A DNA stretch of 15,446 nt from an uncultured archaeon (lineage in GTDB: Archaea > Asgardarchaeota > Lokiarchaeia > Sigyniarchaeales > SOKP01). The notes beneath the pieces are model-generated. The model made no database searches. It was given only the letters and a program-made list of their open reading frames with translations, and had not been told where the DNA came from. Below are positions 1 through 15,446 of the stretch, piece after piece (positions within the stretch are counted from its first letter, which is position 1; each line of letters starts with the position of its first letter). Made by a program: the position numbers and the translations under genes. The stretch lies in contig CAZGJX010000097.1 of NCBI GenBank assembly GCA_964525635.1, positions 1 to 15,446 on the forward strand. The letters are read 5' to 3'.

Positions 1-838
1 ATTCAACAATCTGATCTGAGGGAATTGGATCCCAAGCAGGAGTGGTTGAATCTTCTACGGTAATCAAGATTAGAATAGTACAGTAATTTCCATGAGGATC
101 ATAAGCACGTATCTCAATCCAATACTCTCCTACACTAAGAGTACCAATAGGGGTAATCAATCCATTTGAATCAATATTGAAATTTATAGTATCATCTATC
201 CAATAATAATTGATTCCAGAAAGGTCTGAAGCTTCTACATCATATTCAAAATCATCTCCAAATTCAACAATCTGATCTGAGGGAATTGGATCCCAAGCAG
301 GAGTGGTTGAATCTTCAACTATAACTAAGATCATAGCACTAATATATTGTTCATAAGGATCATAAGCACGTATCTCAATCCAATACTCTCCAATATCAAG
401 AGGATTTATATTTGTTATAAGCCCATCTGAGTCAATATTGAAGTTTATAGTATCATTAATCCAATAGGATTCAATTCCTGAAGCATCTAAAGCATTGACA
501 TCATATTCGAAGTCATTTCCAAATTCAACATCCTGATCCGAGGGATATTGATCCCATATGGGACCAGATTGATCATCTACAGTTATTTTGATTGTTGCAT
601 TAGCAAAATTTCCATAAGGATCATAAGCACGTATCTCAATCCAATACTCTCCTACACTAAGAGTACCAATAGGGGTAATCAATCCATTTGAATCAATATC
701 GAAGTTTATTGTATCATTTAGACTGAAATATGCAATTTCAGATTGATCAATAGCATCTATATCATAGAAGAAATCATTTCCAAATTCTACATACTGGTCT
801 AAGGGAGGATAGATCCAAGTGGGGGCATCTGTATCATT
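1..838 (-). repeat. Intragenic tandem repeats of 261 bp (87 aa), three full units plus the start of a fourth; Ig/cadherin-like modules
   Basis: The equivalent motif attc(a/t)ac recurs at 1, 262, 523 and 784. Protein consensus: PxWDxxPSDQxVEFGxDFEYDVxAxDxSGIxxYWIxDTINFNIDSNGLITPIGTLSVGEYWIEIRAYDPYGN...ITVED. The fold call is inferred from the length, beta-strand pattern and acidic linkers. Confidence 0.9.
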
Positions 839-3800
839 TACCCACTTCATTATTTTAAAATCATCCATTAAAAACCCTCGATAATTATTGTATAAATCAT
901 CATATGTATCAATATAAAATCGTATTTGTACTGAAGAATGATTTATGTATGATGAGAGATCAATATTGATTTTAGCCCATGGTTCTATATTATCATATAA
1001 ATATAATTCATATAAATAGTCCCAATGAATACCATCTGTAGTTATGTAAACAGAAGGTGCATCAAGATAATATTCTCCTTCATACCAATAATAAAATTCT
1101 AAGGACGCATTTACAGCATCTTTTAAATTAAATGGATTCGTAGTAATATTTCCTGTTACAGGGGCCCCTATGTCATAAGTTCCTGTTGATTCATTCCCAA
1201 ACCATATTGAATGATTTTCAGAGTGATAGGAATCTGGCCATTGACTATCCACTCCTGTAAGATGCCATAATCCAGTTATTGATTCCCATTTAGATAATCC
1301 ATTTTCAAAATCATCATAGAATGTATTTTGAAATAGATTTATCATTTCAGTCATAAGGTTATTATTTGCATTCGTTTCATTCAATATAGGTGAACAATAA
1401 GCCGTGAAATTATAAATTCCATATTTCTTAGGAATCCAATTATAGGTAATAGTATGATAGCTACCAGTTGGTAAAGTTTGGATAGTGGTTGAATTAATCG
1501 CTATACTATTTTTATAAAGAGTGACATTAACATTCGATTCATTCGAACTACCTCTATTATATACAATTGCACTTATACTAGATGCTTCACTAATTTTAGG
1601 TAAAAATAATCCATCTAATGACACCTCTAATTCATGTTCAGGTAATTTTAGAGTAAGATTAGCTAATCCTTCACCTCTTACTGCTTTAACCACAATATAA
1701 TACTTTCCAGATTTATAGGTTGTAAATTCAATATTTTCATCTTGACCAATTCCATAAGTTGCAGATCTATACTGCCAATAAGGATCTCCTGAGATACTAC
1801 TTGGATTATCTGAATATATAAAAATATCAAAATCACAATCATCAGGAGCATCTAATTGTAAGTTATATGTTATTCCCTTTAGGAAATTAGCATGACATGC
1901 AAATCCATGTTTGCCATTAGGATTATCTGAACTACTCGATATGAAAATAGAATTTAAAGATTCAGCTTCTAATTCGTTAGTATAAGCCTCTATTGCCATA
2001 TCTAGATTCAAACGACCAAACCCCTCGTGATAGTCCTTCCATCCTCTATCTAAAGTGGGACTCTGAGAACTTATAGTAGTTCCTTCTCTAAATAATGGTG
2101 CTGTTTCCGTTGCAGTCATTAGAAGGAGATATTTTACTAATTTTGCTTCCTCTTCTGTATAAGTCCAATTATTATATCCCCCCATAGCTTCAATTAAAAT
2201 ATTAGATGCTCCTGCTACTGCAGCACATGCCATAGAAGTTCCTTGAGCGCCAATTAAATCATTGCTAAACCAATCAGAATACTCACTTTCAATATCATTA
2301 TAATTTGAATCAGATGAAAACATTTGTAAAGTAAGGTTACTACCTCCTGGTGCACATATATCTGGTTTTGTTACACCATAATAATAATCGCCTTGACTAC
2401 TATATTGAGTTATTTGATCTAAATGATTAGTTGCTGCTACAGTAATAGCTTTTTCAGCATTTCCAGGGCTTCCTATATTACCTTCACCTATACCAGAATT
2501 CCCTGCTGAAACAATAACAACAATACCATTCTCTACAGCATTGTTCACAGCATCTACTATTGATGTTAATTCTATTGATGGGGAATTAAAACTTAATGCC
2601 ATTGTTGTAATATGATAGGTTCTTTTATTTTGAATTGCCCAATTAATTCCATCAATAACATCTGATTGTGTTCCATTACCATACTGATCTAATACTTTTA
2701 TACCAACCAAATGAGTTTCCTCAGCTATGCCTCTCCATGGTCCTCCACAATTATATAAGGGAACATCAAATGGCCAATGAGTTCGATACCTAAAAGTATA
2801 ACAAGGTTCCTCGACTGAATTATTTGCATTATTATCTATGAAATTTATTAGAATTCTTATACTATAATCACCTAATTCATTGCTTGGTACAATATACGAA
2901 AGGTTAGAACTCCATATATCAGATGAGGAGTTAAAACTATCTACCATTGCCTCTTGATAAAAAAGATAAGCATTTATATCAACATCATCAGGATCAGGGG
3001 TATAATCTTTAAATTCACATACAGCATCAATGGTTCCTGGAGTGGTGACATTGAATCTTGTTACTATTATAAGTTTTTCTTCTGGAGAAACAGAGGATCC
3101 CGTCTGATTTTCTGTAAATCCTCCCGAAGCTACTGTTCTACCAAGGTAATCTAAATTAGGATTACCATCTCCAGCAGCAATTCCTGATAAATGGGAACCA
3201 TGACCATTATCATCATAAGGCAAAGATAGATCATTAACCTCATCTTTCCAACCTACAACTTTATAATTAAAATTACCATCAGAATATTCATCAAGCATAT
3301 CATGTGAAACATCTATTCCAGTATCTAGGATTGCTATAGAACTTGTATTATCTCCATTATATCCAAGGATATCCCATACATAAGGACGGAGATTCATATT
3401 TCTGCTAGCATAATACATATTAGCTGTAAAAAATCCATCTTCTTCTATAAAAAACGGGATTTCATTGAAATAGAGGATTTCAGAAAATTTCATTAATCCC
3501 TCATAATTAATATTTCCAGCAAATCCATTAATTGACATAGTATAGGTAGACTTAACCTCTCCACCTAATTTTTTAAAAAGAGTAAGAATATTATTGTAAT
3601 CTCCTCTTGAAAATTTTACAATTATAGGGATAGAATCTTTAGATATATGAATATTGTTTTTTTCAAATATTAATTTATTTTGCTTTTTTGTTGAATCTGA
3701 ATTCAATAAACTATTCAACTTCTCTTCTAATTCATCACTAATACCATTATTGTCTTGATCAATGCCTAAATAATTACTTTTCCAAGTTAATATATCAGAA

Positions 3801-3961
3801 GAATCAAAATCAAGTGTTTTAATTTTATAATTAGATATAGAAATATTTGATAGATTGATTTTGTTCAATATGAAATTAGATATATTTGGTATTAGAAAAA
3901 GTAAAATAGTAAAACCTATTAAGAAAATATTTGATTTTCTAAACTTATTATATTTATTCAT
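1..3961 (-). CDS. Secreted multidomain S8 (subtilisin-like) serine peptidase with I9-like propeptide, PPC-like, CARDB-like and jelly-roll domains and C-terminal Ig/cadherin-like repeats; 3' end lies outside the window
   Basis: Manual translation from ATG 3961-3959 gives MNKYNKFRKSNIFLIGFTILLFLIPN (signal peptide). The catalytic motifs are all in one frame: IAILDTGID (Asp codon 3325-3323), DDNGHGSHLSGIAAG (His 3202-3200), VIVSAGNSG, KPDICAPGG, QGTSMACAAVAG (Ser 2236-2234). The same frame is still coding at position 1. It is absent from the ORF track, presumably because it has no stop codon in the window. Confidence 0.95.
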   Translation of the reverse strand, partial: MNKYNKFRKSNIFLIGFTILLFLIPNISNFILNKINLSNISISNYKIKTLDFDSSDILTWKSNYLGIDQDNNGISDELEEKLNSLLNSDSTKKQNKLIFEKNNIHISKDSIPIIVKFSRGDYNNILTLFKKLGGEVKSTYTMSINGFAGNINYEGLMKFSEILYFNEIPFFIEEDGFFTANMYYASRNMNLRPYVWDILGYNGDNTSSIAILDTGIDVSHDMLDEYSDGNFNYKVVGWKDEVNDLSLPYDDNGHGSHLSGIAAGDGNPNLDYLGRTVASGGFTENQTGSSVSPEEKLIIVTRFNVTTPGTIDAVCEFKDYTPDPDDVDINAYLFYQEAMVDSFNSSSDIWSSNLSYIVPSNELGDYSIRILINFIDNNANNSVEEPCYTFRYRTHWPFDVPLYNCGGPWRGIAEETHLVGIKVLDQYGNGTQSDVIDGINWAIQNKRTYHITTMALSFNSPSIELTSIVDAVNNAVENGIVVIVSAGNSGIGEGNIGSPGNAEKAITVAATNHLDQITQYSSQGDYYYGVTKPDICAPGGSNLTLQMFSSDSNYNDIESEYSDWFSNDLIGAQGTSMACAAVAGASNILIEAMGGYNNWTYTEEEAKLVKYLLLMTATETAPLFREGTTISSQSPTLDRGWKDYHEGFGRLNLDMAIEAYTNELEAESLNSIFISSSSDNPNGKHGFACHANFLKGITYNLQLDAPDDCDFDIFIYSDNPSSISGDPYWQYRSATYGIGQDENIEFTTYKSGKYYIVVKAVRGEGLANLTLKLPEHELEVSLDGLFLPKISEASSISAIVYNRGSSNESNVNVTLYKNSIAINSTTIQTLPTGSYHTITYNWIPKKYGIYNFTAYCSPILNETNANNNLMTEMINLFQNTFYDDFENGLSKWESITGLWHLTGVDSQWPDSYHSENHSIWFGNESTGTYDIGAPVTGNITTNPFNLKDAVNASLEFYYWYEGEYYLDAPSVYITTDGIHWDYLYELYLYDNIEPWAKINIDLSSYINHSSVQIRFYIDTYDDLYNNYRGFLMDDFKIMKWVNDTDAPTWIYPPLDQYVEFGNDFFYDIDAIDQSEIAYFSLNDTINFDIDSNGLITPIGTLSVGEYWIEIRAYDPYGNFANATIKITVDDQSGPIWDQYPSDQDVEFGNDFEYDVNALDASGIESYWINDTINFNIDSDGLITNINPLDIGEYWIEIRAYDPYEQYISAMILVIVEDSTTPAWDPIPSDQIVEFGDDFEYDVEASDLSGINYYWIDDTINFNIDSNGLITPIGTLSVGEYWIEIRAYDPHGNYCTILILITVEDSTTPAWDPIPSDQIVE

Positions 3962-4074
3962 AAGATAATCGCTTTTTTAAGATTATAAGCTATTAAGAAC
4001 TCAAATTATCAGAAATATAAAAAAGGAGTTGGAATAAATGTGAAGTTTTTTTGATTAAATCCATGATAAAAATG

Positions 4075-4215
4075 GAATATCAAGAGAAAAGATTGAACTA
4101 CCATCACCTAAAGGGGTTGTATTCATAATTCATTGAAATAAGCTCAACTGATTGTTTGAGTCTTATAGTTTTACCAATCGCTTAACATTCCATAGTCCCT
4201 ACGGTAGAATGATCA
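4075..4215 (-). ncRNA. Putative TnpB omega-RNA (reRNA) scaffold plus flanking guide
   Basis: The minus strand reads TACCGTAGGGACTATGGAATGTTAAGCGATTGGTAAAACTATAAGACTCAAACAATCAGTTGAGC...TAGTTCAA, resembling the segment found between tnpB 3' ends and IS right ends. It includes a CTCAA/TTGAG stem. Boundaries are approximate and the call is by recognition only. Confidence 0.5.
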
Positions 4216-4369
4216 TAAATAATTGATTATCTTATTTATTATCATTAATTAATAAAGAGGTTTTTTCTATTTTTAAAAAAGATGTGAGAATGATTAGTAA
4301 CTTTTACATCATTTTATATGATTAACTTCATCCCATCCATAAAAGAATGGGCTTTGTTTTGTTCTTATG
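4093..4369 (-). mobile_element. Non-autonomous IS200/IS605-family element (PATE-like), IS608-type ends, no tnpA or tnpB
   Basis: Minus-strand left end: TTAC|CATAAGAACAAAAC-AAAG-CCCATTCTTTTATGGATGGG (target tetranucleotide, AAAG guide, hairpin at 4351-4332). Right end: GAAT-ACAACCCCTTTAGGTGATGGTAGT-TCAA| (4124-4093). TTAC/AAAG and GAAT/TCAA are the known IS608 cleavage/guide pairs. Confidence 0.8.
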
Positions 4370-4433
4370 GTAAAAATCAATATTATATAATACCTAAAAT
4401 TTTATATTTTGAAAAGATATAATATGATTAAGA

Positions 4434-4790
4434 ATGAGTGTAAAATTAGATATTGACTTAGTATTAAAAAGTCTTTTAGAAGAATTAGGTGAAAAAGTCT
4501 ATTTCATCATTATTTCTTCTGAAAATGGTCTAATTCTAAAATGTCATATAAATAATGAAGAGTTTGATAAATCAGCTATAAGTCTTCATATTTCACAGGT
4601 TTATGAAAGTGCTCAAGAAATAACAGATTTAATTGGAATTCATAATCCAGATTTTAATCTAATACACTCGGATAATTTTTATATACTCAGTGTAAAAATT
4701 CTGGATAAAATAGTAATGGTTTTAATAGAAGATCAAACAAATATTACAGATGTATTTCGGGTTATTAATAATTGTATTAAGGCTAATTAG
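4434..4790 (+). CDS. Roadblock/LC7 (MglB/LAMTOR-like) domain protein
   Basis: 118 aa with the Roadblock pattern: N-terminal helix (LVLKSLLEEL), beta-hairpin YFIIISSENGLIL, long helix (AISLHISQVYESAQEITDLIG), three strands and a C-terminal helix. Confidence 0.7.
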   Translation: MSVKLDIDLVLKSLLEELGEKVYFIIISSENGLILKCHINNEEFDKSAISLHISQVYESAQEITDLIGIHNPDFNLIHSDNFYILSVKILDKIVMVLIEDQTNITDVFRVINNCIKAN

Positions 4791-5033
4791 ATTTGACTAA
4801 TCTAACTTCAATTAGTCTATAATTGAATAAGTCTAGGATTCTATATTTTTTACTTAAATACCCTTTTAAGTATATGAACATTATTTACTTAATTTAAAAA
4901 GTCATTAAAAATATTTGTAAAACAGCTCAGGACACAGTTTTAGAAAAATAGTTTTAAATATTTGCAGTATATTTTATATTTAGTAAGTGATATTTTTTTT
5001 TTTTATAATCAGGGGTTAGGGAGGTTTTTTCAG

Positions 5034-5330
5034 TTGCAAGACATTAAAGATGAGATTGAAAAATATGTTAGTTATTTTGTTAAGAAGAAGAAGTTAAAAT
5101 TTAATAGTAAAAAAGAAATAGACCAAGTTTTAACATCCCAAAAATATTTTGAATTTGTTGATAAAGTGTATAATTTTTATAATTCACAGATTTCTACTAA
5201 TGTTGATCCAAAAGAAAGATTATCAATTGAATGTTATTACGATGTAGATCAAGCAATAAATTCTTTCTGGAATCGATTATTGGGTAATAAATTTAGTGAA
5301 AAAATAAAAACAATTTTAAAATTAGGATAA
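5034..5330 (+). CDS. Hypothetical protein (98 aa, predicted helical)
   Basis: Same frame as track ORF 4962..5330. The start is moved to TTG 5034 because GGAGGT (5020-5025) lies 8 nt upstream and the 5' extension crosses a T-run. Confidence 0.65.
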   Translation: MQDIKDEIEKYVSYFVKKKKLKFNSKKEIDQVLTSQKYFEFVDKVYNFYNSQISTNVDPKERLSIECYYDVDQAINSFWNRLLGNKFSEKIKTILKLG

Positions 5331-5443
5331 ATATAATTAATAGCTTTATTTTTTAATTTCGATAATTAATAATTACTTAAATTATAGTTGGAGCAATTTT
5401 TTTATTTTTTTTTAAGATTCTTGTTTATTTTTACTTTTCGTTT

Positions 5444-5474
5444 TTCTCATAGGACAAAAAGGAAATATATAAAT
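5444..5474 (+). promoter_or_regulatory. Imperfect palindrome followed by a TATA box upstream of the GH9 gene
   Basis: TTCTCATAG-GACAA-AAAGGAAAT runs directly into ATATAAAT and shares GACAAAwAGGAAA with 10213-10225. Confidence 0.45.
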
Positions 5475-5593
5475 ATCGAATTCTGATTATAAAAAATTAA
5501 CCACTTTTATATGATAAATTAAAGTTATATAAAATAATTTAAAAGAAAATAGAAATGAATTTAGGGAAATCTATTTTAAGGAATTGAAATAAT

Positions 5594-8500
5594 ATGAAAA
5601 ATTTTAGAGTTTTAAATAAAACAAAAATAAAATTGATACTAATCATTTCAATATTAATCTTCCAAGGAATATTTCTATTAATTGAATCAAAGAAATTTAT
5701 TTCTTTAACAACTATGACTGGAAGAGATCTAAACTCCCAAGCCTGGGAAGCCATCCCAATAACAGATGCAAATGGAGGTCCATTATACAATTATGCAACT
5801 ATGCTTTCAAGAACAATCATGTTTTATGATGCGAATCAATGTGGAAAGAACATAACAGGAAATAATCGTTTTAATTGGCGGGGTGACTGTCATGTTAATG
5901 ATGGAATAGAATGGACATTGAGTAATGGACAAACTATATGGATTGATGCTACAGGGGGATATCATGATGCAGGGGATCATATTAAATTTGGAATTACTAA
6001 TGCTTATGCAGCATCAACTTTAGGATGGGGTTTATATGAATTCCGTGATCAATACGAAGAAACTGGACAATTAAATAATATACTAAGAGCAATAAAATGG
6101 GCAACGGATTATTTTATTAAATGCCATCCTGAACCAAACTCATTTTTATATAGTGTTGGTTCTAGTGAGGATCATAATTTTTGGGGTCCACCTGAATTGC
6201 AATTGGATTCTAGAAGTCCTCGTGATATAGTTGTATGCACCCCCTCAAATCCCGCTTCAGATGTATGTGGATTAACTGCTGGAGCTTTAGCTTTAATGTA
6301 TATTAATTATATAGATATAGATCCTGATTATGCAAATCTATGTCTTCAACATGGAAAAGAGATATACGATTTAGGAAGAAATAATCTTGGGCTTAGTGAT
6401 GGCCTTGCTTTTTATCCCCCTAGTATATATTGGGATGATCTTGCATGGGGTTCAATATGGTTATATAAAGCTACAGGTGATGAAGCATATTATGATGATT
6501 TTAAAATTATACTTGGTCCCTCTTGTGCGGGGATAGATCATGATGATGATATTAATAATGGATTAAATTGGGAGAATACATGGACACATTGTTGGGATGC
6601 TGTTTGGGCAGGTGTTTTTGCAGCTGCTTCAGGAATAACAGGTCATGCTGCATTTATGGAACAAGTAGAAACTAATTTAGATTATTGGATGTATGATCTA
6701 GCTGAGACTCCAGCAGGATTAAAATACTTAAATGAATGGGGTGTTTTAAGATATGCAACAGCTTCTGCCTTATGTGGATTAGTTTATTATAAATATTCTG
6801 GAGAAATTATTTATCGAGATTTTGCTGCCAGCCAAATAAATTATGCTTTAGGTTCTAATCCCTTAGATCGCTGTTATATTGTAGGTTGCGGAACAAATCC
6901 ACCTCAACACCCACATCATGATGCTGCTCATGGTTCTGAAACTGGTTTTCTTGATGATCCTCCAGAACATAAACATGTACTCTATGGAGCACTTGTCGGA
7001 GGGCCTGGAATGGATGACCAACATAATGATGCTACAGATGATTATGTTCAAAATGAAGTATCCATTGATTATAATGCGGCAATGGTTGGCGCCTTAGCGG
7101 GTATGCGAGAGAATTTTGGTCCAGATCTTATTCCTGATCCTGATCCGGAGCCAGAACCGCCCATTCAAGCATATTGGGTTGAATCTAGAATTGAAAAAGA
7201 TTTAAATGAAAGATCACAACTTACCTTTTATATTCAAAATCATGCAATCCACCCACCACACTATGAATATGATCTGTTATTTAGATATTATGTAGATTTA
7301 AGTGAAGTTTTTGACCAAGGCTATGGACTAGAAAATATAAATATTGAAACGGTTGTAAATGAAAACCAAGATGCTCAAGTTGCTCAAGAATTTACACCAT
7401 GGGATGAATTAAACTATATTTATTATGTTGAAATTAGTTATCAAGGAGTAGAATTATACAATAAAAGAGAAGTTCAAATTGCATTAATATATAATACACC
7501 TAATTTTGAGGGAATATGGGATCCTACAAATGATTTTTCGCATTTACCCATGACAGAAATATTAGAGCCAAATGAAAACATCCCGCTCTATCGCGGTGGT
7601 GAGCTATTATGGGGCTCAGAACCATATAAAGATTTAATTCCCCCTGAGAAACCGACTGGGATTACTACATCAGTTAAAGGGAGTGCACAAATTGATTTAG
7701 ACTGGAATGATAATAGTGAAACAGATTTATCACACTATAACATTTATCATAGTATAAATAGTCAATTTGAAATTAATAGTGAATCATTAGCAGGAAGTTC
7801 TGGAACCAGTGATTTTTCTGATACAGAATTATTAGCTGAAACAATTTATTATTATAAAATCACTGCTGTAGATACAAATGAAAATGAAGGTTTACCTTCA
7901 GATATTGTTTCAGCAACTACTCTTACACCAGATCCATATCCCCCAGCTTCACCAACGGGTCTGACAGTTATAGATACAGGATCATCACAAATAGAACTTA
8001 ATTGGAATGATAATTCAGAAGATGATCTCTCAAAATATAAAGTATATCGAAGTACTATTTCTGGATTTACATGTGATCAGACAACCTATATTGGAGATAC
8101 AATAGTAAGTAACTATTTGGATATAGATCTTTCATCCGATACTACTTATTATTATAAAGTTATTGCCATTGATACAAGTAATAATCCTAGTGATCCTTCA
8201 GATCAAATTTCTGCTACAACTGATAAAATTATAGCACAATTAAGGGCCAAATATATATGTGGTAATCAAGATTCTACAACTTCGGAGGTTAGAGCACAAA
8301 TACAGATTCAAAATGATGGTCCTCTTGATGTTGCTTTGACTGATGTTACCGTTCGATATTGGTTTACTTCTGAACCTGCCCTAAGTGATCTTACTTACTC
8401 ATGTGATTATGCTGCTGTTGGATCCTCAGGAATAACGAGTACATTTGGAAGCACAGGAGATTCTGATTATTTAGAAATTGGATTTACTTCCTCAGCCACA

Positions 8501-9205
8501 GTTCCTACTTGGTTAGGGGGAGATGGTTCCAGTAACTCTCTTCTAATAGGGGCGAATACAGGAGATATTCAAAATAGAATTGGGAGAAATTCTAACATCA
8601 ATTTTGATCAGACTAATGACCATTCGTTTGATCCTTCTTTTAGCGCTTACTCAGATGCAAATCAAATCACAGTTTATTATCAAGGAATTTTAGTATGGGG
8701 TAAAGAACCTCCAACAGGACCTATTAGTGAGCCCCCAAGTATTAATTCTCCTGCTAATGTTAATTATCAAGAAGGAGATACAGGAAATTCAATAACATGG
8801 ACAGCTACAGATGATAATCCTACAATCTATATAGTTACTCGAGGTAATACTCAAGTAGCTTCTGGGTCATGGAGTTCTGGAAGTCCAATAACCATGATTG
8901 TTGACGGTTTATCCCTAGGAACTTATACTTATACTTGTACCGTTACAGATGGAGATGGACAGATGGATTCTGACTCTGTTACTGTAACCGTGTCTCAAAG
9001 CACAGAATTCCAGAATGGTGATGTGAACCATGATAGTAATGTTGATATTGTGGATGCCCTTATGATTGCCCAATATTATGTAGGACTTGATCCTCAGCCA
9101 TTTTATCCCGAGGAAGCAGATGTGGACAATAGTGGATCTATTGATATTGTGGATGCATTGATGGTTGCTCAAGCCTATGTAGGATTAATAGAATTACCTC
9201 CATAA
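5594..9205 (+). CDS. Secreted modular GH9 endoglucanase: signal/TM - GH9 - CBM3(c-like) - FN3 x2 - CBM3 - Ig-like - dockerin
   Basis: GH9 motifs FYDANQCG, WRGD, GGYHDAGDHIKFG, PQHPHH, LYGALVGGP, DYVQNEVSIDYNAA. Pro/acidic linker PDPDPEPEPP at about 7133-7162. Two FN3 units (PEKPTG...LDWNDNSETDLSHYNIY...YYYKITAVD). CBM3 (QIQNDG...LTDVTVRYWFT...CDYA...YLEIGF...FDQTNDHSF...LVWGKEP). Duplicated dockerin loops GDVNHDSNVDIVDALM and ADVDNSGSIDIVDALM. Confidence 0.95.
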   Translation: MKNFRVLNKTKIKLILIISILIFQGIFLLIESKKFISLTTMTGRDLNSQAWEAIPITDANGGPLYNYATMLSRTIMFYDANQCGKNITGNNRFNWRGDCHVNDGIEWTLSNGQTIWIDATGGYHDAGDHIKFGITNAYAASTLGWGLYEFRDQYEETGQLNNILRAIKWATDYFIKCHPEPNSFLYSVGSSEDHNFWGPPELQLDSRSPRDIVVCTPSNPASDVCGLTAGALALMYINYIDIDPDYANLCLQHGKEIYDLGRNNLGLSDGLAFYPPSIYWDDLAWGSIWLYKATGDEAYYDDFKIILGPSCAGIDHDDDINNGLNWENTWTHCWDAVWAGVFAAASGITGHAAFMEQVETNLDYWMYDLAETPAGLKYLNEWGVLRYATASALCGLVYYKYSGEIIYRDFAASQINYALGSNPLDRCYIVGCGTNPPQHPHHDAAHGSETGFLDDPPEHKHVLYGALVGGPGMDDQHNDATDDYVQNEVSIDYNAAMVGALAGMRENFGPDLIPDPDPEPEPPIQAYWVESRIEKDLNERSQLTFYIQNHAIHPPHYEYDLLFRYYVDLSEVFDQGYGLENINIETVVNENQDAQVAQEFTPWDELNYIYYVEISYQGVELYNKREVQIALIYNTPNFEGIWDPTNDFSHLPMTEILEPNENIPLYRGGELLWGSEPYKDLIPPEKPTGITTSVKGSAQIDLDWNDNSETDLSHYNIYHSINSQFEINSESLAGSSGTSDFSDTELLAETIYYYKITAVDTNENEGLPSDIVSATTLTPDPYPPASPTGLTVIDTGSSQIELNWNDNSEDDLSKYKVYRSTISGFTCDQTTYIGDTIVSNYLDIDLSSDTTYYYKVIAIDTSNNPSDPSDQISATTDKIIAQLRAKYICGNQDSTTSEVRAQIQIQNDGPLDVALTDVTVRYWFTSEPALSDLTYSCDYAAVGSSGITSTFGSTGDSDYLEIGFTSSATVPTWLGGDGSSNSLLIGANTGDIQNRIGRNSNINFDQTNDHSFDPSFSAYSDANQITVYYQGILVWGKEPPTGPISEPPSINSPANVNYQEGDTGNSITWTATDDNPTIYIVTRGNTQVASGSWSSGSPITMIVDGLSLGTYTYTCTVTDGDGQMDSDSVTVTVSQSTEFQNGDVNHDSNVDIVDALMIAQYYVGLDPQPFYPEEADVDNSGSIDIVDALMVAQAYVGLIELPP

Positions 9206-9247
9206 TAGAGTATCAGCACAAGAAAAAACTCAAAAAATAGCTATAAA

Positions 9248-9271
9248 TCTCTTTTTTTTTCTCTTTTTTTC
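9248..9271 (+). terminator. Archaeal-type oligo-T terminator after the GH9 gene
   Basis: CTCTTTTTTTTTCTCTTTTTTT, two T-runs about 45 nt past the stop codon. Confidence 0.5.
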
Positions 9272-9353
9272 AGGTAAAGTAAGTAATTGAAAAATATTTA
9301 AAAATAAAACTGACTATTATAATTTAGTAAAAACCATTAAAATTGTATCATAT

Positions 9354-9920
9354 ATGTCTCAAAAAGTATTGATTGTATATGGATCGCGTTATGGAAGTAC
9401 AGAAGAAATTTCAATTAAGTTTAAAAAAAAACTGGAAGATAGTGGTTTTATCGTTGATTTAATAAATTTAAAATCTAAAAAAAAAGAAATGCCCCAAGTT
9501 AACAACTATTCTGGTGTTTTAATTGGTAGTGGTATTCTTATTAATAGATGGACTAAAAAAGCAAAACAATTCTTAAAAAAGAATGTTAAATTAATAAATG
9601 ATAATAACATATTAGTTGGAATATATCTTAGCTCTGGTTTAGCAGCTAATCCAGAAAGACGGCCAGAGGCAGTTGAAAAATTATTGATAAAAGTTTTTGA
9701 AAAAGAAGGTTTAGTATTAGGAGATAATGTCATTTATGATGCTTTTGGTGGAGTAAATGATTTATCTGAAAACACAAATCTAAGTGGTTTACATCGTAAA
9801 ATGTTGACAATGGCATCAAAAATGGACCCAGACTATATAGTTTTAGGAGAAAGAAAAGATTGGCGCGATTGGGATCAAATCAACAGCTTTATTGAAAAAT
9901 TTATTTCTATAATTAAATGA
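9354..9920 (+). CDS. Flavodoxin-domain protein (Flavodoxin_5 / HemG-like)
   Basis: KVLIVYGSRYGSTEEI (FMN phosphate loop), YSGVLIGSGI..W, AFGG, and C-terminal DWRDWDQINSF, all typical of HemG-like flavodoxins. Confidence 0.88.
   Translation: MSQKVLIVYGSRYGSTEEISIKFKKKLEDSGFIVDLINLKSKKKEMPQVNNYSGVLIGSGILINRWTKKAKQFLKKNVKLINDNNILVGIYLSSGLAANPERRPEAVEKLLIKVFEKEGLVLGDNVIYDAFGGVNDLSENTNLSGLHRKMLTMASKMDPDYIVLGERKDWRDWDQINSFIEKFISIIK
9865..9920 (+). repeat. Direct repeat copy 1 (3' end of the flavodoxin gene)
   Basis: 52 of 56 nt identical to 11978-12033, with a perfect 38-nt core (9872-9909 = 11985-12022). Confidence 0.93.
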
Positions 9921-9949
9921 TTTTTTATAGTTTTATTTTTAATAGTTCA

Positions 9950-9972
9950 TTGTCCTATATCAAATAGGAAAA
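9950..9972. promoter_or_regulatory. Near-perfect palindrome, candidate transcription-factor site
   Basis: TTGTCCTAT-ATCAA-ATAGGAAAA; 8 of 9 arm positions are complementary. CAAATAGGAAAA is identical at 9961-9972 and 10215-10226. Confidence 0.45.
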
Positions 9973-9981
9973 ACATTAACA

Positions 9982-10089
9982 GATAGTGTCAGTATTACTA
10001 TTGCTCCAAATGCTCAGCTCCAAAACGATGATCTAAATCATGATAATAAAGTAGAGATTATTGTTACTTTTATGATTGTACAATAATAC
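9982..10089 (+). pseudogene. Relic of the 3' end of a dockerin-bearing gene
   Basis: Translates to DSVSITIAPNAQLQNDDLNHDNKVEIIVTFMIVQ*Y and aligns without gaps (16 of 36 identical) to DSVTVTVSQSTEFQNGDVNHDSNVDIVDALMIAQYY of the GH9 protein (8972-9079). It has a premature TAA and altered Ca-binding residues. Confidence 0.8.
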
Positions 10090-10203
10090 AGAGATACTTT
10101 TAATTAAAAAATTATTTAAAAATTACGTTTACAAAGATAGGATTTTAATTAAATTTCTCAGTAAAGAAAAATAATTTGACAATTTTTTCTATATTTTTCT
10201 TAT

Positions 10204-10236
10204 ATTCCCCATGACAAATAGGAAAACTTATATAAT
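10204..10236 (+). promoter_or_regulatory. Imperfect palindrome followed by a TATA box upstream of the rhodanese/halocin-like gene
   Basis: ATTCCCCAT-GACAA-ATAGGAAAA followed by C-TTATATAA, about 55 nt before ATG 10291. Confidence 0.5.
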
Positions 10237-10290
10237 ATGCTATTTTACGTTAAAAGAATTTAATTTTTAATAATTTAGTTGAAGATAATT

Positions 10291-10710
10291 ATGAATGTAA
10301 AAAAAGATCATAAATCAAAAAAGGGGGTTCTTGTAGCAATCATTATAATCTCATTTATAATACCTATGGCTCGGGTAATCCCTCCTGTTAATGCTTGCAA
10401 ACCGAATGATAGTCCTTTTATTGAAAATATATCAGTAAGGACAGCAAGCAGCATTATTAGAAGAATGGATCCCATAATTTTAGATGTTAGAAAATCTGAA
10501 GATTTTGAAACAGGCCATTTATTTAATGCAATCAATATTCCATTTTTAGAATTAGAAGATCGAATTCAAGAATTAGAATCTTCAAAAAAGGATTTAATTA
10601 TTATATATTGTAATACTGGTTTTACAAGTGAATTAGCAAGTGAATTATTATATACGCATGGATATTTACTAAAATCTATAATATGCTTGGTGGTATTCAG
10701 GAATGGATGA
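10291..10710 (+). CDS. Signal peptide plus rhodanese-like domain; 5' part of a frameshifted gene
   Basis: Basic/hydrophobic N-terminus (KKGVLVAIIIISFIIPMA...VNAC), then ILDVR..E.FETGHL.NAINIP and IIIYCNTGFTS. Similarity breaks after HG(Y). The expected ending FTKIYNMLGGIQEW is in another frame from 10665. ATG 10291 is preferred to TTG 10279. Confidence 0.85.
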   Translation: MNVKKDHKSKKGVLVAIIIISFIIPMARVIPPVNACKPNDSPFIENISVRTASSIIRRMDPIILDVRKSEDFETGHLFNAINIPFLELEDRIQELESSKKDLIIIYCNTGFTSELASELLYTHGYLLKSIICLVVFRNG

Positions 10711-11672
10711 ATTCAGGATATAAAATCTCAACAACATACCATTATATAAACTTTTCTGAATCAATAAATCAGAGAATCTTCATTGATATTACTCCTCTCA
10801 TTAAAAATAAACTTGATTGTTCTAGTTGTAATAGTGATTCAAATTGTTCTAATTTTGAATTAGAGAGGCCACAAAACGTTGAAATAACTGAAGTATTAAA
10901 TAATGAGACTCATTTAATATTGCTTCAAAGTTTTGAATTAGATGGTATATCATATGAATCCCAAATTGCTTATATCACTAGATGGACTTCAACAGAACAA
11001 ACCGATAAACTAAATCGAACTATGAAATTTACTACAATTGAAGTAAGTGGTGAAGATTTCTTAATTACCTATGATACTTTGGAATATTTAGCAGAATATG
11101 AAGATTATAGTATAAGTATTAAAACTCAATTAATACCCTCAGAAGAAGGAAAATATAGTTATTCATTCACTCACATTTTATTAGTAGATAAAAATAATGA
11201 AAAAGTGTTATCTGAAGAATTTGTTGAAATAAATAAACCTTTAAAAGTCTCTGATCTCTATAGTCTTTTAGGAATAATTAGTTTTAAAATGTCTAATGTT
11301 TATAGCAACTACCTGAGAATTTCAAATGATGTAAAATTTGAGTCATTAGCCATTGGATATTTTCATATGGCGCTTGAATGTTTTAAACTTTCGGAAATAG
11401 TTTATAAATCAATTCCATCATATAATCTTGAAATTCTAGAAAGTTATGCAGTTCTAAATGATCCTCCTTGGTGGATCTGTGCAGCAGCTTCATTTACATG
11501 TGGATTTATGATAGGATATATAGCAGGTTGTGCAGTTGCAGCAGTTGTTACAGCAGGATTAGGTTTTGTTGCTTGTATTGGAAGTGCATTAGCTTTAGTT
11601 GGAGCTTCTTGGGCATTGATTGCTACATGCACAATTTTGTGTTGTTGTTTGGGTTTTGCCGTTTGTTGCTAA
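10683..11672 (+). CDS. 3' part of the frameshifted gene: end of rhodanese, CxxC motif, acidic pro-region and Cys-rich hydrophobic C-terminal peptide (halocin C8-like precursor)
   Basis: Starts with the rhodanese end MLGGIQEWMNSGY, then CSSC. The last 70 aa (11460-11669; DPPWWIC...LCCCLGFAVCC) contain 10 Cys and no charged residue after the first Asp. The halocin-like call rests on architecture only. Confidence 0.65.
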   Translation: MLGGIQEWMNSGYKISTTYHYINFSESINQRIFIDITPLIKNKLDCSSCNSDSNCSNFELERPQNVEITEVLNNETHLILLQSFELDGISYESQIAYITRWTSTEQTDKLNRTMKFTTIEVSGEDFLITYDTLEYLAEYEDYSISIKTQLIPSEEGKYSYSFTHILLVDKNNEKVLSEEFVEINKPLKVSDLYSLLGIISFKMSNVYSNYLRISNDVKFESLAIGYFHMALECFKLSEIVYKSIPSYNLEILESYAVLNDPPWWICAAASFTCGFMIGYIAGCAVAAVVTAGLGFVACIGSALALVGASWALIATCTILCCCLGFAVCC

Positions 11673-11684
11673 AATATAAATCTT

Positions 11685-11698
11685 ATTTTTTTTTTTTA
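11685..11698 (+). terminator. Oligo-T run after the Cys-rich precursor gene (possible terminator or attenuator)
   Basis: A run of about 12 T in the 46-nt gap before the small membrane gene. Confidence 0.3.
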
Positions 11699-11718
11699 TA
11701 TATCTAAATTACTAATTT

Positions 11719-11973
11719 ATGGTGATTAAGGTAGAAAAAACTAAGAAAATTCTTTATTATGGATTAATGTTAATTTCAGGTATTTTTGGATTTGTATATT
11801 TTTTATTTTTTCCAAATTTAGTTCTCTTCTGTGGATCAACAATATTTTTAATAATTGGAGCTACTTACACAATTTCTACTATATTAAAAAAAGATTTCAA
11901 GTATGGATTACTTGGTCATTTGAGTTTTTTAGTTTTTCTTTTTTTTGTTATTCTATATTTTGTGGAAATATAA
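11719..11973 (+). CDS. Small membrane protein with about 3 TM helices; candidate immunity protein
   Basis: 84 aa with a basic N-terminus and three hydrophobic stretches, 46 nt downstream of the Cys-rich precursor on the same strand. Confidence 0.65.
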   Translation: MVIKVEKTKKILYYGLMLISGIFGFVYFLFFPNLVLFCGSTIFLIIGATYTISTILKKDFKYGLLGHLSFLVFLFFVILYFVEI

Positions 11974-11977
11974 AAGT

Positions 11978-12033
11978 GCGATTTGGATCAAATCAACAGC
12001 TTTATTGAAAAATTTATTTCTAAAATTCAATAA
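11978..12033 (+). repeat. Direct repeat copy 2 (orphan flavodoxin 3' end)
   Basis: Encodes RDLDQINSFIEKFISKIQ* versus RDWDQINSFIEKFISIIK* in copy 1, with the stop at the same position. Confidence 0.93.
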
Positions 12034-12217
12034 ATACCATTTTACAATTATTATATTTCCTAACTTTTTTCTGATTTTATAATATTGTATAAATTTTACT
12101 GGTGGACTCAAAAAGGTCAAATTATTTTGTTGTTAAACTCTTCTTAACAAAAAATAAAAATTAAGGATTATTTTATAAAAAAATTAGAAATTTAATATTA
12201 TTGAGGAACTCAAATTT

Positions 12218-13801
12218 ATGGAATTAGAGATTTATGGTGGAGTTAATGAAATTGGGGGTAACAAAATATTTATTAATATAGGAGATAAGAAATTTCTTTT
12301 CGATTTTGGTCTTTCATTTAAAGACAGTAATCAATATTTCTCTGAATTTCTTAATCCCAGAAAATTCAATGGGATTATTGATTATTTATATCTTAATCTT
12401 ATTCCACCTGTTAACAAAATATACAGAAATGATTTAATAACACCCTTTAAAGATATTCTCAATCAACCTAATTATAAAATTAATTTAAGTGACACTAATT
12501 TAATTGATGCTTTTTTCTTAACTCATGCACATATGGATCATTATAAATTTGCAGGATTTCTTCGACAAAAAACACCAATTTATCTCAATTGGATCTCATA
12601 CGATCTCATACAATATCTATCAGAAACATCAATAGACCAATTAATACCAGAGATTTTAAATTTCTATGAATCATTTAAAATGGTACCAAAAAAAAGACAA
12701 AAAAAAGATGCTGAAATTCAATATAAAAGAGCAACTAAAAATGACTATAAAGATGATGAGATTAAACGCAAAGTAAATATTATGGAAAATGAAAAACCAT
12801 ATTCTTTTAATACATCAAAGGGTGTGGTTAATATAACACAATATATCGTAGATCATTCAATACCTGGGGCATGTTCCTATATCATTGAAAATGACGGAAG
12901 AAGTGTAATATATACAGGAGATTTTAGAAGACATGGCTTTCATAAAGAATGGGTTGATAGATTTATCGATATGGCTCATAATTCCAATCCAATAGCAATT
13001 ATTACTGAAGGTACAAGAGTTCCATCTATAGAAGATTTTGAAAGTGGAAAATATAGAATAGAAGATCAAAGTGAGAAGGATGTAGAAATCCGTTCTCGAG
13101 ATTTAATGAGAATGCATCCTGGATTGATATTGGTAAATTTTCCTATAAGAAATCTTGATAGAATATTGTTATATTATAAGTTAGCAAAGAAATTAAATCG
13201 GATTTTTGCAATAACACCTAAAGTATTCCTCCTTATTGATAAATATCGAACAAGTTTAGATAATATGGAAGAAAAAGTTATAAAAGATTTTTATAGTGCA
13301 TATAATTTCCCAGAATATAATGATGAGAATTTTAAGGTTTATTTGAGAAGAAAAGGATGGGGAAAATTTGAATCAGCAGATTATAGAACACATGAAAAAC
13401 AGATTTTTGAAGATGGTAATTACTTGACTTATAGAGATATAATTAAAGAACCAGAAAAATATTTACTTTATTTAGATTTCTTTATGCTAAGTGAATTAAT
13501 TGATTTAAATCAAGAAAAAGATTCAATTATGTATATTAATTCTACAACAGATCCATTCAATGAGGAAATGGAAATTAAAGAAGAAAAACTAACAGCATGG
13601 TTAGAACATTTTGGAATCTTAAAAACAGAAACCATTCATTCATCAGGTCATTGTTCCGTAGATGATCTAATCGATGCTTTACAAAAAATTAATGCCGAAA
13701 ATATCATCCCAATCCATACAGAAAATCCTAAAACATTTGAACAATTAGGTTTATCAGGAAATATTATAATTCCAGAAAAAGGAAAGATATATCAATTTTA
13801 A
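12218..13801 (+). CDS. Metallo-beta-lactamase-fold beta-CASP ribonuclease (RNase J-like)
   Basis: YGGVNEIGGN, LFDFG, LTHAHMDH (HxHxDH), DHSIPG, YTGDFR, ITEGT, HSSGH and IPIHTE: the full MBL and beta-CASP motif set. Confidence 0.9.
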   Translation: MELEIYGGVNEIGGNKIFINIGDKKFLFDFGLSFKDSNQYFSEFLNPRKFNGIIDYLYLNLIPPVNKIYRNDLITPFKDILNQPNYKINLSDTNLIDAFFLTHAHMDHYKFAGFLRQKTPIYLNWISYDLIQYLSETSIDQLIPEILNFYESFKMVPKKRQKKDAEIQYKRATKNDYKDDEIKRKVNIMENEKPYSFNTSKGVVNITQYIVDHSIPGACSYIIENDGRSVIYTGDFRRHGFHKEWVDRFIDMAHNSNPIAIITEGTRVPSIEDFESGKYRIEDQSEKDVEIRSRDLMRMHPGLILVNFPIRNLDRILLYYKLAKKLNRIFAITPKVFLLIDKYRTSLDNMEEKVIKDFYSAYNFPEYNDENFKVYLRRKGWGKFESADYRTHEKQIFEDGNYLTYRDIIKEPEKYLLYLDFFMLSELIDLNQEKDSIMYINSTTDPFNEEMEIKEEKLTAWLEHFGILKTETIHSSGHCSVDDLIDALQKINAENIIPIHTENPKTFEQLGLSGNIIIPEKGKIYQF

Positions 13802-13845
13802 AAGAAAAAACCATATGAGAGATAATAATATAATTAAGTGGTATT

Positions 13846-15249
13846 ATGGAAAATACAAATTTTTGTTTACCGAGTGATGAAACAATATCTATAGCAGGAC
13901 TCTTAAAAGAATATAAACCTCATAATAAAGCGATTTATACTTTTACAATTACCCCAGATAGAATATATGTAATTACTGGTTCTTTAGATAAAACAATAAA
14001 AATTTGGAATTTAGAAACAGGAGATTTAAATATAAAAATTGATGGTCATGATGATGAAATTATTTGTCTAGATCTTTCTTCTGATGGTAGTCGTATTGTA
14101 AGTGGTTCTGAAGATAACACAATAAAATTATGGAAACTAGACACTGGAAATTTAATGCGAAATTTTACAGATCATGAAGGAGCGATTTTTGACGTTTTAA
14201 TTTCTCCTAATGATGATTATATTATCAGTACTTCTGAAGATAAAACAGCAAAAATTACAAAATGGAGTACAAAGAAGATAATAAGAACTTTAAAAGAAGA
14301 AGAATCTGGATTGAAATCTATAGCAATATCCCCAAATGGAAAATATTTAGCAATTAGTAGCGGAAGGAATATTTATATTTGGAATTGGGGTGAAAATGAA
14401 CCTAAATATAAGGTTGAAGGTCATAAATTTGCTATTAGCTCAATTAAGATATGTCCAAAAGGAGAATATCTTGTATCAGGTTCACTAGATAAAACAATTA
14501 AAATATGGAATTTAAATACGGGAGATTTAATTAAAACACTCAAGGGTCATAAAGGAGGAATTAACTCAATCGCAATATCTTTCGATAGAAGATATATTGC
14601 CTCAGGTTCAGGTGATAAAACAGTGATAGTATGGGACACAATTAATGGAAAAACATATGGACCTTTTCTTCATGAATCTTTTGTACAATGTGTTAAATTT
14701 ATTCCAAATTCATATTTAGTAATAGGGGCGGATTATAACGGCTCTGTGAGAGTTTGGGACTTTCTTGGGGAGTGTATAGATTTGAAATCAGGATTAATGA
14801 AAGGTGATTCTTATACTGATATCTCTGAAGACTTTTCCAAAAATCTTACAATATTTATTAGTTATGCTACTTCTGATACAAATATATATGAAATTCAGAG
14901 AATTTCCAATATTTTAAGCAACTCATATCCTGATATTGAAAAAGTTTTATTTTGGGAGGAAAATATGGATGATGATATATATGTGTATATGAATGATAAT
15001 TTAGCAATTGCTGATATAGTTATTGTTTTCTGCTCAAAAAATGCGAATGAATCAGAAGCCGTTAGAACAGAATGGATGGTGGCCCATAAAATGAAAAAAA
15101 AAATCATTCCTGTTTTTATAAAGGAAGAATTTATACCTCCATTACTAACCACAAAATTGGGAGTACAATATAAAACAAATAATCTGAAAGAATTCATACA
15201 AGATTTATATTCACTAATTAAAAAAAAAACAAAACCAAGAAGAAAATAA
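13846..15249 (+). CDS. WD40 (7 repeats) - TIR domain protein
   Basis: Seven WD repeats, e.g. GHDDEI...SGSEDNTIKLWK and GHKGGINSIAIS...SGSGDKTVIVWD. The TIR domain starts at about 14851: IFISYA, DIVIVFCSKNANESEAVRTEW (Glu codon 15070-15072), KIIPVF, IPPLL. Confidence 0.92.
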   Translation: MENTNFCLPSDETISIAGLLKEYKPHNKAIYTFTITPDRIYVITGSLDKTIKIWNLETGDLNIKIDGHDDEIICLDLSSDGSRIVSGSEDNTIKLWKLDTGNLMRNFTDHEGAIFDVLISPNDDYIISTSEDKTAKITKWSTKKIIRTLKEEESGLKSIAISPNGKYLAISSGRNIYIWNWGENEPKYKVEGHKFAISSIKICPKGEYLVSGSLDKTIKIWNLNTGDLIKTLKGHKGGINSIAISFDRRYIASGSGDKTVIVWDTINGKTYGPFLHESFVQCVKFIPNSYLVIGADYNGSVRVWDFLGECIDLKSGLMKGDSYTDISEDFSKNLTIFISYATSDTNIYEIQRISNILSNSYPDIEKVLFWEENMDDDIYVYMNDNLAIADIVIVFCSKNANESEAVRTEWMVAHKMKKKIIPVFIKEEFIPPLLTTKLGVQYKTNNLKEFIQDLYSLIKKKTKPRRK

Positions 15250-15270
15250 ATTATTAACTAGAAAAATCAT

Positions 15271-15295
15271 GTTTTTTTTTTTACTTTCTTTTATT
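15271..15295 (+). terminator. Oligo-T terminator after the WD40-TIR gene
   Basis: A run of 11 T followed by further T-runs about 20 nt past the stop codon. Confidence 0.5.
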
Positions 15296-15446
15296 ATTTA
15301 TAATAATTAACTAGTTAACCCTCGCCTGGTTCTGAAATATACAGAAAAGAACAATAAAATTTTATTGAATATATTCTAAATATTTAAATTTCCTTAGTGT
15401 CCTATAATTCTTATATACCTCCATATTACTTTCTTTTATAATAACA

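Follow-up and report, generated by a model that had tools for sequence, protein, structure and literature searches.

A frameshifted rhodanese-tail gene in a Lokiarchaeial genome and its putative family of Sec-exported, toxin/archaeocin-like cassettes with candidate membrane immunity genes

Architecture of the locus

The 15,446-nucleotide (nt) stretch of DNA considered here (the window) is positions 1 to 15,446 of the forward strand of contig CAZGJX010000097.1 (NCBI GenBank assembly GCA_964525635.1), which derives from an uncultured archaeon of the GTDB lineage Asgardarchaeota, Lokiarchaeia, Sigyniarchaeales, SOKP01. Its subject is a gene pair that encodes an exported rhodanese protein with a Cys-rich hydrophobic tail (hereafter the effector) and, next to it, a small membrane protein. 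An initial annotation made from the sequence alone had interpreted this pair as a halocin C8-like archaeocin precursor with its immunity gene. The window has a G+C content of 29%. The host genome (G000) measures 4.45 Mb, is 100% complete by markers and encodes eukaryote-type actins (up to 443 bits), which fits an Asgard archaeon; a profilin search gave no match in any genome, the controls included, and so is uninformative.

The effector is encoded by two open reading frames (ORFs; Table 1) that are one gene split by a frameshift. The initial annotation had joined them, and intact homologs establish that it was right to do so: P0002-P0006 (444-463 amino acids (aa), 51-74% identical) are uninterrupted, align end to end across the ORF join, and all five carry the rhodanese domain PF00581. 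The reading frame switches between GGA TAT (10660-10665) and ACT AAA (from 10668), and because the homologs have G-F-[TKR]-K at this position the window has two extra bases, a change other than a homopolymer slip. Programmed frameshifting was also considered and rejected, as the site does not conform to a canonical slippery heptamer and the homologs read through in a single frame, making a mutation the simpler explanation. The frameshift is real in the population, given that independently assembled contigs of three other salt-marsh metagenome runs (X1, X2 and X3, which may stem from the same campaign that yielded the genome) span the site gap-free and without a difference. In the frame that carries the signal peptide, the frameshift cuts off the last helix of the rhodanese, leaving that domain not intact in the window.

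The signal peptide has a Lys-rich n-region and a hydrophobic segment at residues 9-36, and the AlphaFold2 (AF2) model of the homolog P0002 places a helix at residues 10-28 of this region. Inspection found no twin arginine in the n-region of the window's protein or its homologs, and hence no twin-arginine translocation (Tat) signal. The homologs share an A-x-A-like cleavage site at the same position, and since the Cys that follows is not conserved among them, a lipobox reading of VNAC was ruled out.

Relatives match PF00581 down to E 1e-17, and 48 of 51 family representatives retain the catalytic six-residue loop. By Foldseek, the rhodanese part resembles solved rhodaneses, e.g. GlpE and YgaP (E 1e-5 to 2e-8). 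Most genomes of the class also encode a secreted single-domain rhodanese of ~190 aa (e.g. L013-L021) related to the rhodanese of the module at E about 1e-30, and a full-length effector profile matches 139 of the 161 class genomes chiefly through its rhodanese part. The fused domain probably descends from this stand-alone protein, which may serve as a general enzyme for thiol handling outside the cell.

The segment between rhodanese and tail had been described as an acidic pro-region. It is indeed acidic, but it is not a loose pro-region: AF2, working from a 93-sequence alignment, predicts a confidently folded domain of ~240 aa (predicted local distance difference test (pLDDT) score >90) in which about ten beta strands form a sheet and lead into two long helices and a last strand. 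The CSSC motif that the initial annotation had picked out is present, as are the signal peptide and the rhodanese with its active-loop Cys; the motif lies at 10818-10829, where it forms C-x2-C-x5-C with a third Cys (10845-10847) in a loop that the model depicts as flexible. The motif is conserved among homologs as CSSC, CSEC or CPEC, and 70 of 77 family representatives carry CxxC or CxC here. This middle domain has no match in Pfam, NCBIfam or PADLOC, nor by PDB sequence search. Searches with middle domain and tail together gave nothing at E<=0.001 by Foldseek against the PDB (the top rows being START lipid-binding domains at probability 0.2) and, in a wide VIA-align search, a best Z of 6.6 to generic helical hairpins, below the meaningful level. 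Judged by these comparisons, it appears to be a novel beta/helix domain without known relative.

The tail proved to be as Gly/Ala-rich, uncharged and Cys-rich as had been noted, and is 69 aa long with 15 Ala, 8 Gly, no charged residue and a grand average of hydropathy of 1.80. AF2 models it as a helix-turn-helix at low confidence (pLDDT 40-75), and no score in an ESM Atlas search with it exceeded 0.80, which is noise level. We refer to it as W-type; its Cys residues are all invariant across five copies.

The 84-aa membrane gene, which we term Imm-W, has the three hydrophobic segments first ascribed to it and is a truncated copy: its full-length homologs have four, and the fourth is missing here. 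It matches the proteins encoded at L033:2978-3379 (52% identity, E 4e-25) and L026:4039-4437 (43%, E 3e-12); a protein homolog search with the 134-aa membrane protein returned the query itself only. The 46-nt gap ahead of the 84-aa gene contains, at 11675-11704, an oligo-T run resembling an archaeal terminator and a TTTATATA box, and thus the membrane gene may have its own promoter. With the effector frameshifted and the membrane gene truncated, the locus is probably no longer active, and the window copy is probably a decayed family member, a recent pseudogene inside a strain-specific island.

Table 1. Coordinates of the effector gene, its partner, the flanking repeat and related orphan cassettes (window positions unless a locus is named)
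Feature	Position	Strand	Remarks
Flavodoxin-like gene	9354-9920		3' end formed by the left repeat copy
54-nt direct repeat, left copy	9865-9918	+	94% identical to right copy; 3' end of flavodoxin-like gene
Effector ORF 1 (signal peptide + rhodanese)	10291 (ATG) or 10279 (TTG) to 10710	+	From the ORF list
Signal peptide	10291-10395	+	Residues 1-35, MNVKKDHKSKKG; hydrophobic core, VNA/C; Sec-type by inspection
Rhodanese domain	10459-10727	+	PF00581, E 9e-13; loop YCNTGFTS; catalytic Cys codon 10609-10611
Frameshift site	10663-10668	+	Two extra bases relative to homologs; GGA TA/T TT/ACT where homologs have G-F-T-K
Effector ORF 2 (rest of gene including tail)	10683-11672	+	From the ORF list; 329 codons, still open
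Middle domain	10728-11462	+	245 aa, pI (isoelectric point) 4.57; AF2 pLDDT >90; C-x2-C-x5-C loop
W-type tail	11463-11669	+	69 aa; PPWW, predicted helical hairpin, end CCCLGFAVCC; 10 Cys
Small membrane gene Imm-W	11719-11973	+	84 aa, three hydrophobic segments; truncated relative to 116-134-aa homologs
54-nt direct repeat, right copy	11978-12031	+	Starts 5 nt past the stop of the 84-aa gene; encodes a C-terminal end DQINSFIEKFISKIQ and stop
Orphan tail cassettes	L022:8358-8870; L026:3493-3900; L057:1492-1935; L069:2162-2632		

Family distribution and tail classes

From 1.84 billion representatives, a profile of the middle domain alone recovers 228 protein clusters at E<=1e-3, of which 107 reach E<=1e-30. 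Ahead of the middle domain most members carry about 145 residues that comprise the signal peptide and rhodanese, and some the signal peptide alone; behind it stands a Cys-rich hydrophobic tail, a beta-rich domain of ~200 aa, or both, in many unrelated classes. The distribution is patchy: the domain is encoded by 19 of 400 genomes of the phylum (9 of the 90 high-quality ones) and 13 of 161 of the class, and was found in none of three same-genus genomes. Full-text literature searches yielded no description of such proteins, although the archaeal-toxin survey of Makarova et al. 2019 (mBio) could mention them, and the family appears to be previously undescribed and Asgard-archaeal. In one genome (G059, contig C32), two inverted copies of the gene (L054, L059) lie one at each contig end, and both are cut at profile position 203 of 239, just short of the part that varies; evidently the polymorphic region is where assembly broke off.

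Across the family the tails are 50-110 aa long, very hydrophobic and nearly charge-free, contain 6-24 Cys, and often follow a poly-Gly or poly-Pro stretch. Pooled over 81 tails, the cores consist of 15.7% Cys, 0.9% Lys and Arg, and 4.3% Asp and Glu. The number of Cys is even in 72 of the 81, a count that overstates its significance because the tails are mutually related and not independent. Even numbers argue for paired Cys, i.e. disulfides, in an extracellular mini-domain. The window's own subfamily (f1) includes the W-type, a 10-Cys tail behind poly-Pro, an 8-Cys tail (B-type) starting CFGGDP[FY]WDC, a 14-Cys tail and a D-type. These are unrelated cassettes on a conserved N-terminal part: an hhalign comparison of W-type with 8-Cys tails gave a probability of 0.2%, i.e. 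the two are not alignable. Single-linkage BLAST clustering of the tails was governed by composition and gave no usable classes.

Many otherwise unrelated tails begin with a common motif, [DG]-x-W-x-C-x2-C (DFWSC, DPFWDC, GFWEC, PPWWxC), and 38 of 81 tails have a Trp 0-2 residues ahead of an early Cys. This motif might mark a site of processing, anchor recombination or form the first disulfide staple. An archaeosortase-type sorting signal was considered for the tails and rejected: they are two to four times too long, lack a basic end and are mutually unrelated.

Membrane genes paired with the tails

The initial annotation had raised the prospect that the downstream membrane gene and the tail vary together, and at the level of families this is what the loci display. 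In f1, the class of the tail agrees with the family of the adjacent membrane gene at 18 of 18 loci. W-type tails accompany Imm-W (5 loci); tails with 8, 10 or 12 Cys accompany a 148-178-aa protein, Imm-N, with the motifs NWLWVNIG, APWAPL and GKKRDYRP (10 loci); the 14-Cys tail accompanies a 65-aa protein (1 locus); and D-type orphans of different genomes accompany a protein of 151 or 163 aa (2 loci). Imm-W and Imm-N are unrelated, as their hhalign probability of 0.7% indicates. Every intact W-type gene found (L031, L032 and L033) is immediately followed by an Imm-W homolog, and another such homolog lies convergent to an orphan W-type fragment in G024.

Such orphan cassettes, which occur in G027, G024 and G025 (Table 1), consist of a tail preceded by the last 65-130 residues of the middle domain, with a membrane gene alongside; the fragment in G027 directly follows the main gene and its Imm-N. 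The membrane genes also occur by themselves. Imm-N is encoded by 31 of the 161 class genomes, as against 13 for the effector, and forms tandem pairs or triples in the effector-less genomes G119, G131, G108 and G148.

Two of these neighborhoods deserve mention on their own account. In an island of G023 (contig C115, L069:2162-5090), an orphan 156-aa ORF that ends in a 10-Cys tail of the 14-Cys-type lineage shares its neighborhood with a 91-aa membrane gene and a run of three Imm-N paralogs. In the effector-less G119 (contig C4, L067:2745-5790), an Imm-N pair adjoins an ABC transporter pair (a 347-aa ATPase and a 276-aa permease), a layout reminiscent, by analogy, of bacteriocin immunity or export clusters.

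Exchange of tails between genomes

Pairwise comparisons reveal discordant identities in tails and middle domains. G054 and G024, which belong to different genera, encode middle domains that are 86% identical and tails that are 29% identical; in a second comparison the last 110 aa of the middle domain are 83% identical, the tail core 29% and the membrane gene 39%. Two paralogs of a single genome, G029b and G029c, are 89% identical in the middle domain, 54% in the tail and 34% in the membrane gene. The inverse is found between G153 and G029c, with a middle domain at 46%, a tail at 68% and a membrane gene at 67%.

The DNA of G054 and G024 locates the boundary. Flanks and the first 250 nt of the gene are 40-60% identical, a block of ~850 nt covering the end of the rhodanese and the whole middle domain is 87-97% identical, and identity then falls to 35-50% exactly at the junction of middle domain and tail, with 50-67% in the next gene. 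A highly similar block that ends at this junction is the signature of recombination in which the constant domain serves to exchange the tip.

Interpretation

A conserved N-terminus, swapped tails, a matched membrane gene, patchiness, orphan cassettes and arrays of the membrane gene are together typical of toxin-immunity conflict systems. We therefore favor, at a probability of about 0.6, the reading that the window carries a decayed copy from a family of polymorphic cassettes that are Sec-exported, are toxin- or archaeocin-like and come with membrane immunity genes. Under it we infer toxicity, immunity, disulfides, release of the tail and a role for the rhodanese, which might act together as follows. 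The effector would leave the cell by its Sec-type signal, and the Cys of its tail would pair into disulfides outside, possibly with oxidizing sulfur supplied by the rhodanese and CxxC part, given a genome without DsbA and VKOR. The hydrophobic mini-domain, tethered or released, would insert into a competitor's membrane, the producer would be protected by the small membrane protein of matching type encoded next to the effector, and new tail and membrane-gene cassettes would be gained by recombination within the conserved middle domain.

Several points weigh against this reading. None of the tails or longer C-terminal domains matches a known toxin, bacteriocin or defense family in Pfam, NCBIfam or PADLOC. 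The modelled tail, a plain helical hairpin, could be a membrane anchor, and the covariation of tail and membrane gene would also be expected if the two merely form a membrane complex. On a fine scale, the identities of tail and Imm-N do not covary significantly (Spearman 0.19, p 0.21); at two loci of other classes no downstream membrane gene is evident; the membrane genes next to orphan cassettes are convergent, not co-directional; and relatedness among the tails inflates the parity of their Cys numbers. Within the window's own clade, moreover, the tail is the most conserved part (63-86% identical, against 44-54% for the middle domain), so that from close homologs alone one would see the invariant tail that the initial annotation had named as evidence against its proposal.

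These reservations lead to an alternative in which the system is polymorphic, displayed on the cell surface and not toxic, serving self/non-self recognition, adhesion or virus evasion: the tail would be a variable membrane-anchoring hairpin with a matching small partner, and its diversity would be driven by recognition. Polymorphism, cassette exchange and partner association are equally expected of such a system. The modelled hairpin is of membrane-spanning length, W-type tails lack any charged residue and no toxin domain is detectable; moreover, bacterial polymorphic surface receptors with partners exist, TraA/TraB of Myxococcus being a reported example. Stand-alone tandem arrays of the membrane gene in effector-less genomes, however, are easily explained for immunity genes and hard to explain for the partner of an anchor; many tail types lack positive-inside residues and bear acidic ones in the second half; and the even-Cys bias favors a disulfide-bonded extracellular domain over buried helices. 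We regard this alternative as unlikely.

The conserved catalytic loop invites a metabolic explanation as well, namely that the protein is a membrane-anchored extracytoplasmic sulfurtransferase whose rhodanese takes sulfane sulfur (thiosulfate or polysulfide) outside the cell and whose Cys tail, together with the neighboring membrane protein, passes sulfur, electrons or a thiophilic metal across the membrane. Cys residues in or near membrane helices do move thiophilic cargo, e.g. in MerT/MerF and DsbD/CcdA; Escherichia coli YgaP, one of the fold matches, is a rhodanese followed by a C-terminal helical hairpin; and secreted single-domain rhodaneses are near-universal in the class. A relay, however, needs a conserved Cys geometry, and the tails are unrelated cassettes differing in Cys number from 6 to 24. 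Several members, e.g. P0015, P0018 and P0046, have no rhodanese; in others the ~200-aa beta domain replaces or precedes the tail; no DUF2892/YgaP-type domain is detected; and patchiness, orphan cassettes and a recombination mosaic are unexpected for a metabolic enzyme. This explanation seems to us very unlikely.

Returning to the toxin/archaeocin-like reading, the part of the rhodanese in it can be framed more specifically. Searches of G000 for VKOR, DSBA and Thioredoxin_4 gave no match, and the control genomes matched. In E. coli the periplasmic rhodanese PspE, together with DsbC, can partly replace DsbA/DsbB (PMC5403849). The kept catalytic loop, the even Cys numbers, the lack of DsbA and VKOR and this precedent make a built-in oxidative maturation, which the initial annotation had also suggested, plausible as an inference; the rhodanese-less members and the near-universal stand-alone rhodanese qualify it. 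It is enticing to extend this idea to a self-contained weapon of Asgard archaea in anoxic sediments, in which the rhodanese and the C-x2-C loop would use sulfane sulfur from thiosulfate or polysulfide to oxidize or cross-link the tail's Cys, giving a disulfide- or polysulfide-stapled membrane-active archaeocin whose tail and immunity cassettes are traded between genera through recombination in the carrier domain. So complete a scheme is quite unlikely to hold as stated; if it did, it would add a new class to the archaeal antimicrobials and, at the same time, a new way of achieving oxidative folding outside the cell without oxygen.

Asgard archaea are the closest prokaryotic relatives of eukaryotes, and to our knowledge almost nothing has been learned of how they compete with or recognize their neighbors; we know of no archaeocin characterized from them. 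The family offers a concrete candidate, in the form of a compact, apparently Sec-exported carrier with dozens of short Cys-rich tips and candidate immunity genes. The pairing of these tips with an intact extracellular rhodanese, in the absence of recognizable disulfide machinery, bears on the folding of Cys-rich secreted proteins in strict anaerobes. Were the tips not toxic, the exchange of cassettes between genera would still mark a fast-evolving surface system and provide a useful strain marker.

Genomic context

The module is bracketed by the two copies of the 54-nt direct repeat, an arrangement that recurs on contigs of two other metagenome runs. The right copy encodes an end KFISKIQ followed by a stop, and the flavodoxin ortholog of the same-genus genome G036 ends in KFVSKIQ. 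The right copy thus keeps the ancestral end of the flavodoxin gene, so the module entered that gene at its 3' end and brought a replacement end with it, in the manner of an att site. No integrase is encoded inside the 2.1-kb insert that the repeats bracket.

The insert is itself part of a larger variable segment. In the same-genus genome G037 (contig C172), the ortholog of 12218-13801 comes directly after those of 4434-4790 and 4962-5330, identifying ~5331-12217 of the window (~6.9 kb) as a strain-specific island, which contains the flavodoxin gene and a GH9 cellulase in addition to the rhodanese-tail module. The cellulase (5594-9205) is a 1203-aa GH9 protein with CBM3, fn3, PKD-like and type I dockerin domains, and its PKD/dockerin 3' part, especially 8800-9270, has dozens of copies at 67-88% DNA identity on other contigs of G000 and on same-genus contigs, a hint of an extensive repertoire of secreted, cellulosome-like proteins with dockerins. 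The dockerin-like repeat at 9009-9078 has a degenerate copy (73%) at 10019-10088, in the non-coding gap between flavodoxin gene and module, which looks like the scar of an earlier rearrangement. Elsewhere in the window, a 1320-aa ORF on the reverse strand (2-3961) runs off the window start, and a 467-aa ORF (13846-15249) encodes a 7-bladed WD40 protein.

Comparison with known systems

With PspE, YgaP and GlpE the effector shares the rhodanese fold and the C-x2-G-x-[ST] active loop, and with YgaP also an ending in a two-helix hairpin. Those enzymes, in contrast, are conserved housekeeping proteins that have neither the middle domain nor a polymorphic tail nor cassette exchange, and the rhodanese of YgaP faces the cytoplasm. 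A Pfam search for the DUF2892/YgaP-type two-helix domain gave no match; what the effector has instead is a signal peptide and the 240-aa domain.

Pore-forming colicins and class II bacteriocins are paired with membrane immunity proteins, and the family resembles them in combining a presumably membrane-active hydrophobic hairpin with a specific adjacent membrane protein of three to four helices. There is, however, no homology; the family's tails are Cys-rich, with even Cys numbers and nearly no positive charge, and its members are without receptor-binding or translocation domains.

The likeness to halocin C8 from which the initial annotation set out is of another order. ProC8 of Natrinema is a 283-aa precursor exported by Tat, whose N-terminal part is the immunity protein HalI (PF22862) and whose C-terminal 76 residues are the halocin (TIGR04449) (10.64898/2026.07.27.741052). 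The two systems have in common an exported precursor that ends in a hydrophobic 10-Cys peptide of ~70 aa. They differ in that the signal is of the Tat type there and Sec-type here, and in that immunity resides in the precursor's N-terminus there, whereas here that position is taken by the rhodanese and a new domain and the candidate immunity protein is encoded by a separate membrane gene. At E up to 1, a threshold at which Pfam scans returned only PF00581 and chance matches, TIGR04449 matched none of eight family members and PF22862 none of eleven family sequences, among them the window's two ORFs, the tail alone and the 84-aa gene. Nor did any of the 161 class genomes score over the TIGR04449 cut-off, at which the control, Haloferax volcanii, matched; the best sub-threshold match (G160, E 0.006) falls inside a ~320-aa gene judged unrelated and is spurious. 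A true, highly diverged halocin C8 family member, with a C-terminal peptide homologous to HalC8, would account for the size, hydrophobicity, 10 Cys and terminal position of the peptide in an exported precursor (10.64898/2026.07.27.741052), but the failed model searches, the Sec-type signal and the separately encoded immunity candidate make such descent highly improbable. The proposed kinship thus gives way to a resemblance of kind and not of family, a conclusion drawn from hidden Markov model scans and the signal type.

The closest parallels are instead with polymorphic toxins, in bacteria of the Rhs and CdiA type, whose loci are described as joining variable tips to a conserved body, with specific small genes next to them and with orphan tips that show homology to the body's end (PMC8416519); archaeal polymorphic toxin systems were predicted by Makarova et al. 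2019, as summarized in PMC8416519. Differences are plain enough. The family protein is small (about 460 aa), with a plain signal peptide and no repeats or dedicated secretion apparatus; its tips are hydrophobic, Cys-rich mini-domains of 50-110 aa and not nucleases, deaminases or peptidases; its partner genes encode membrane proteins; its body contains a rhodanese; and its toxicity is putative. The likeness lies in the plan: swappable, unrelated C-terminal tips on a conserved N-terminal body, a sharp boundary at the tip, orphan tips that retain a stretch of the body, a matching small gene and a patchy distribution.

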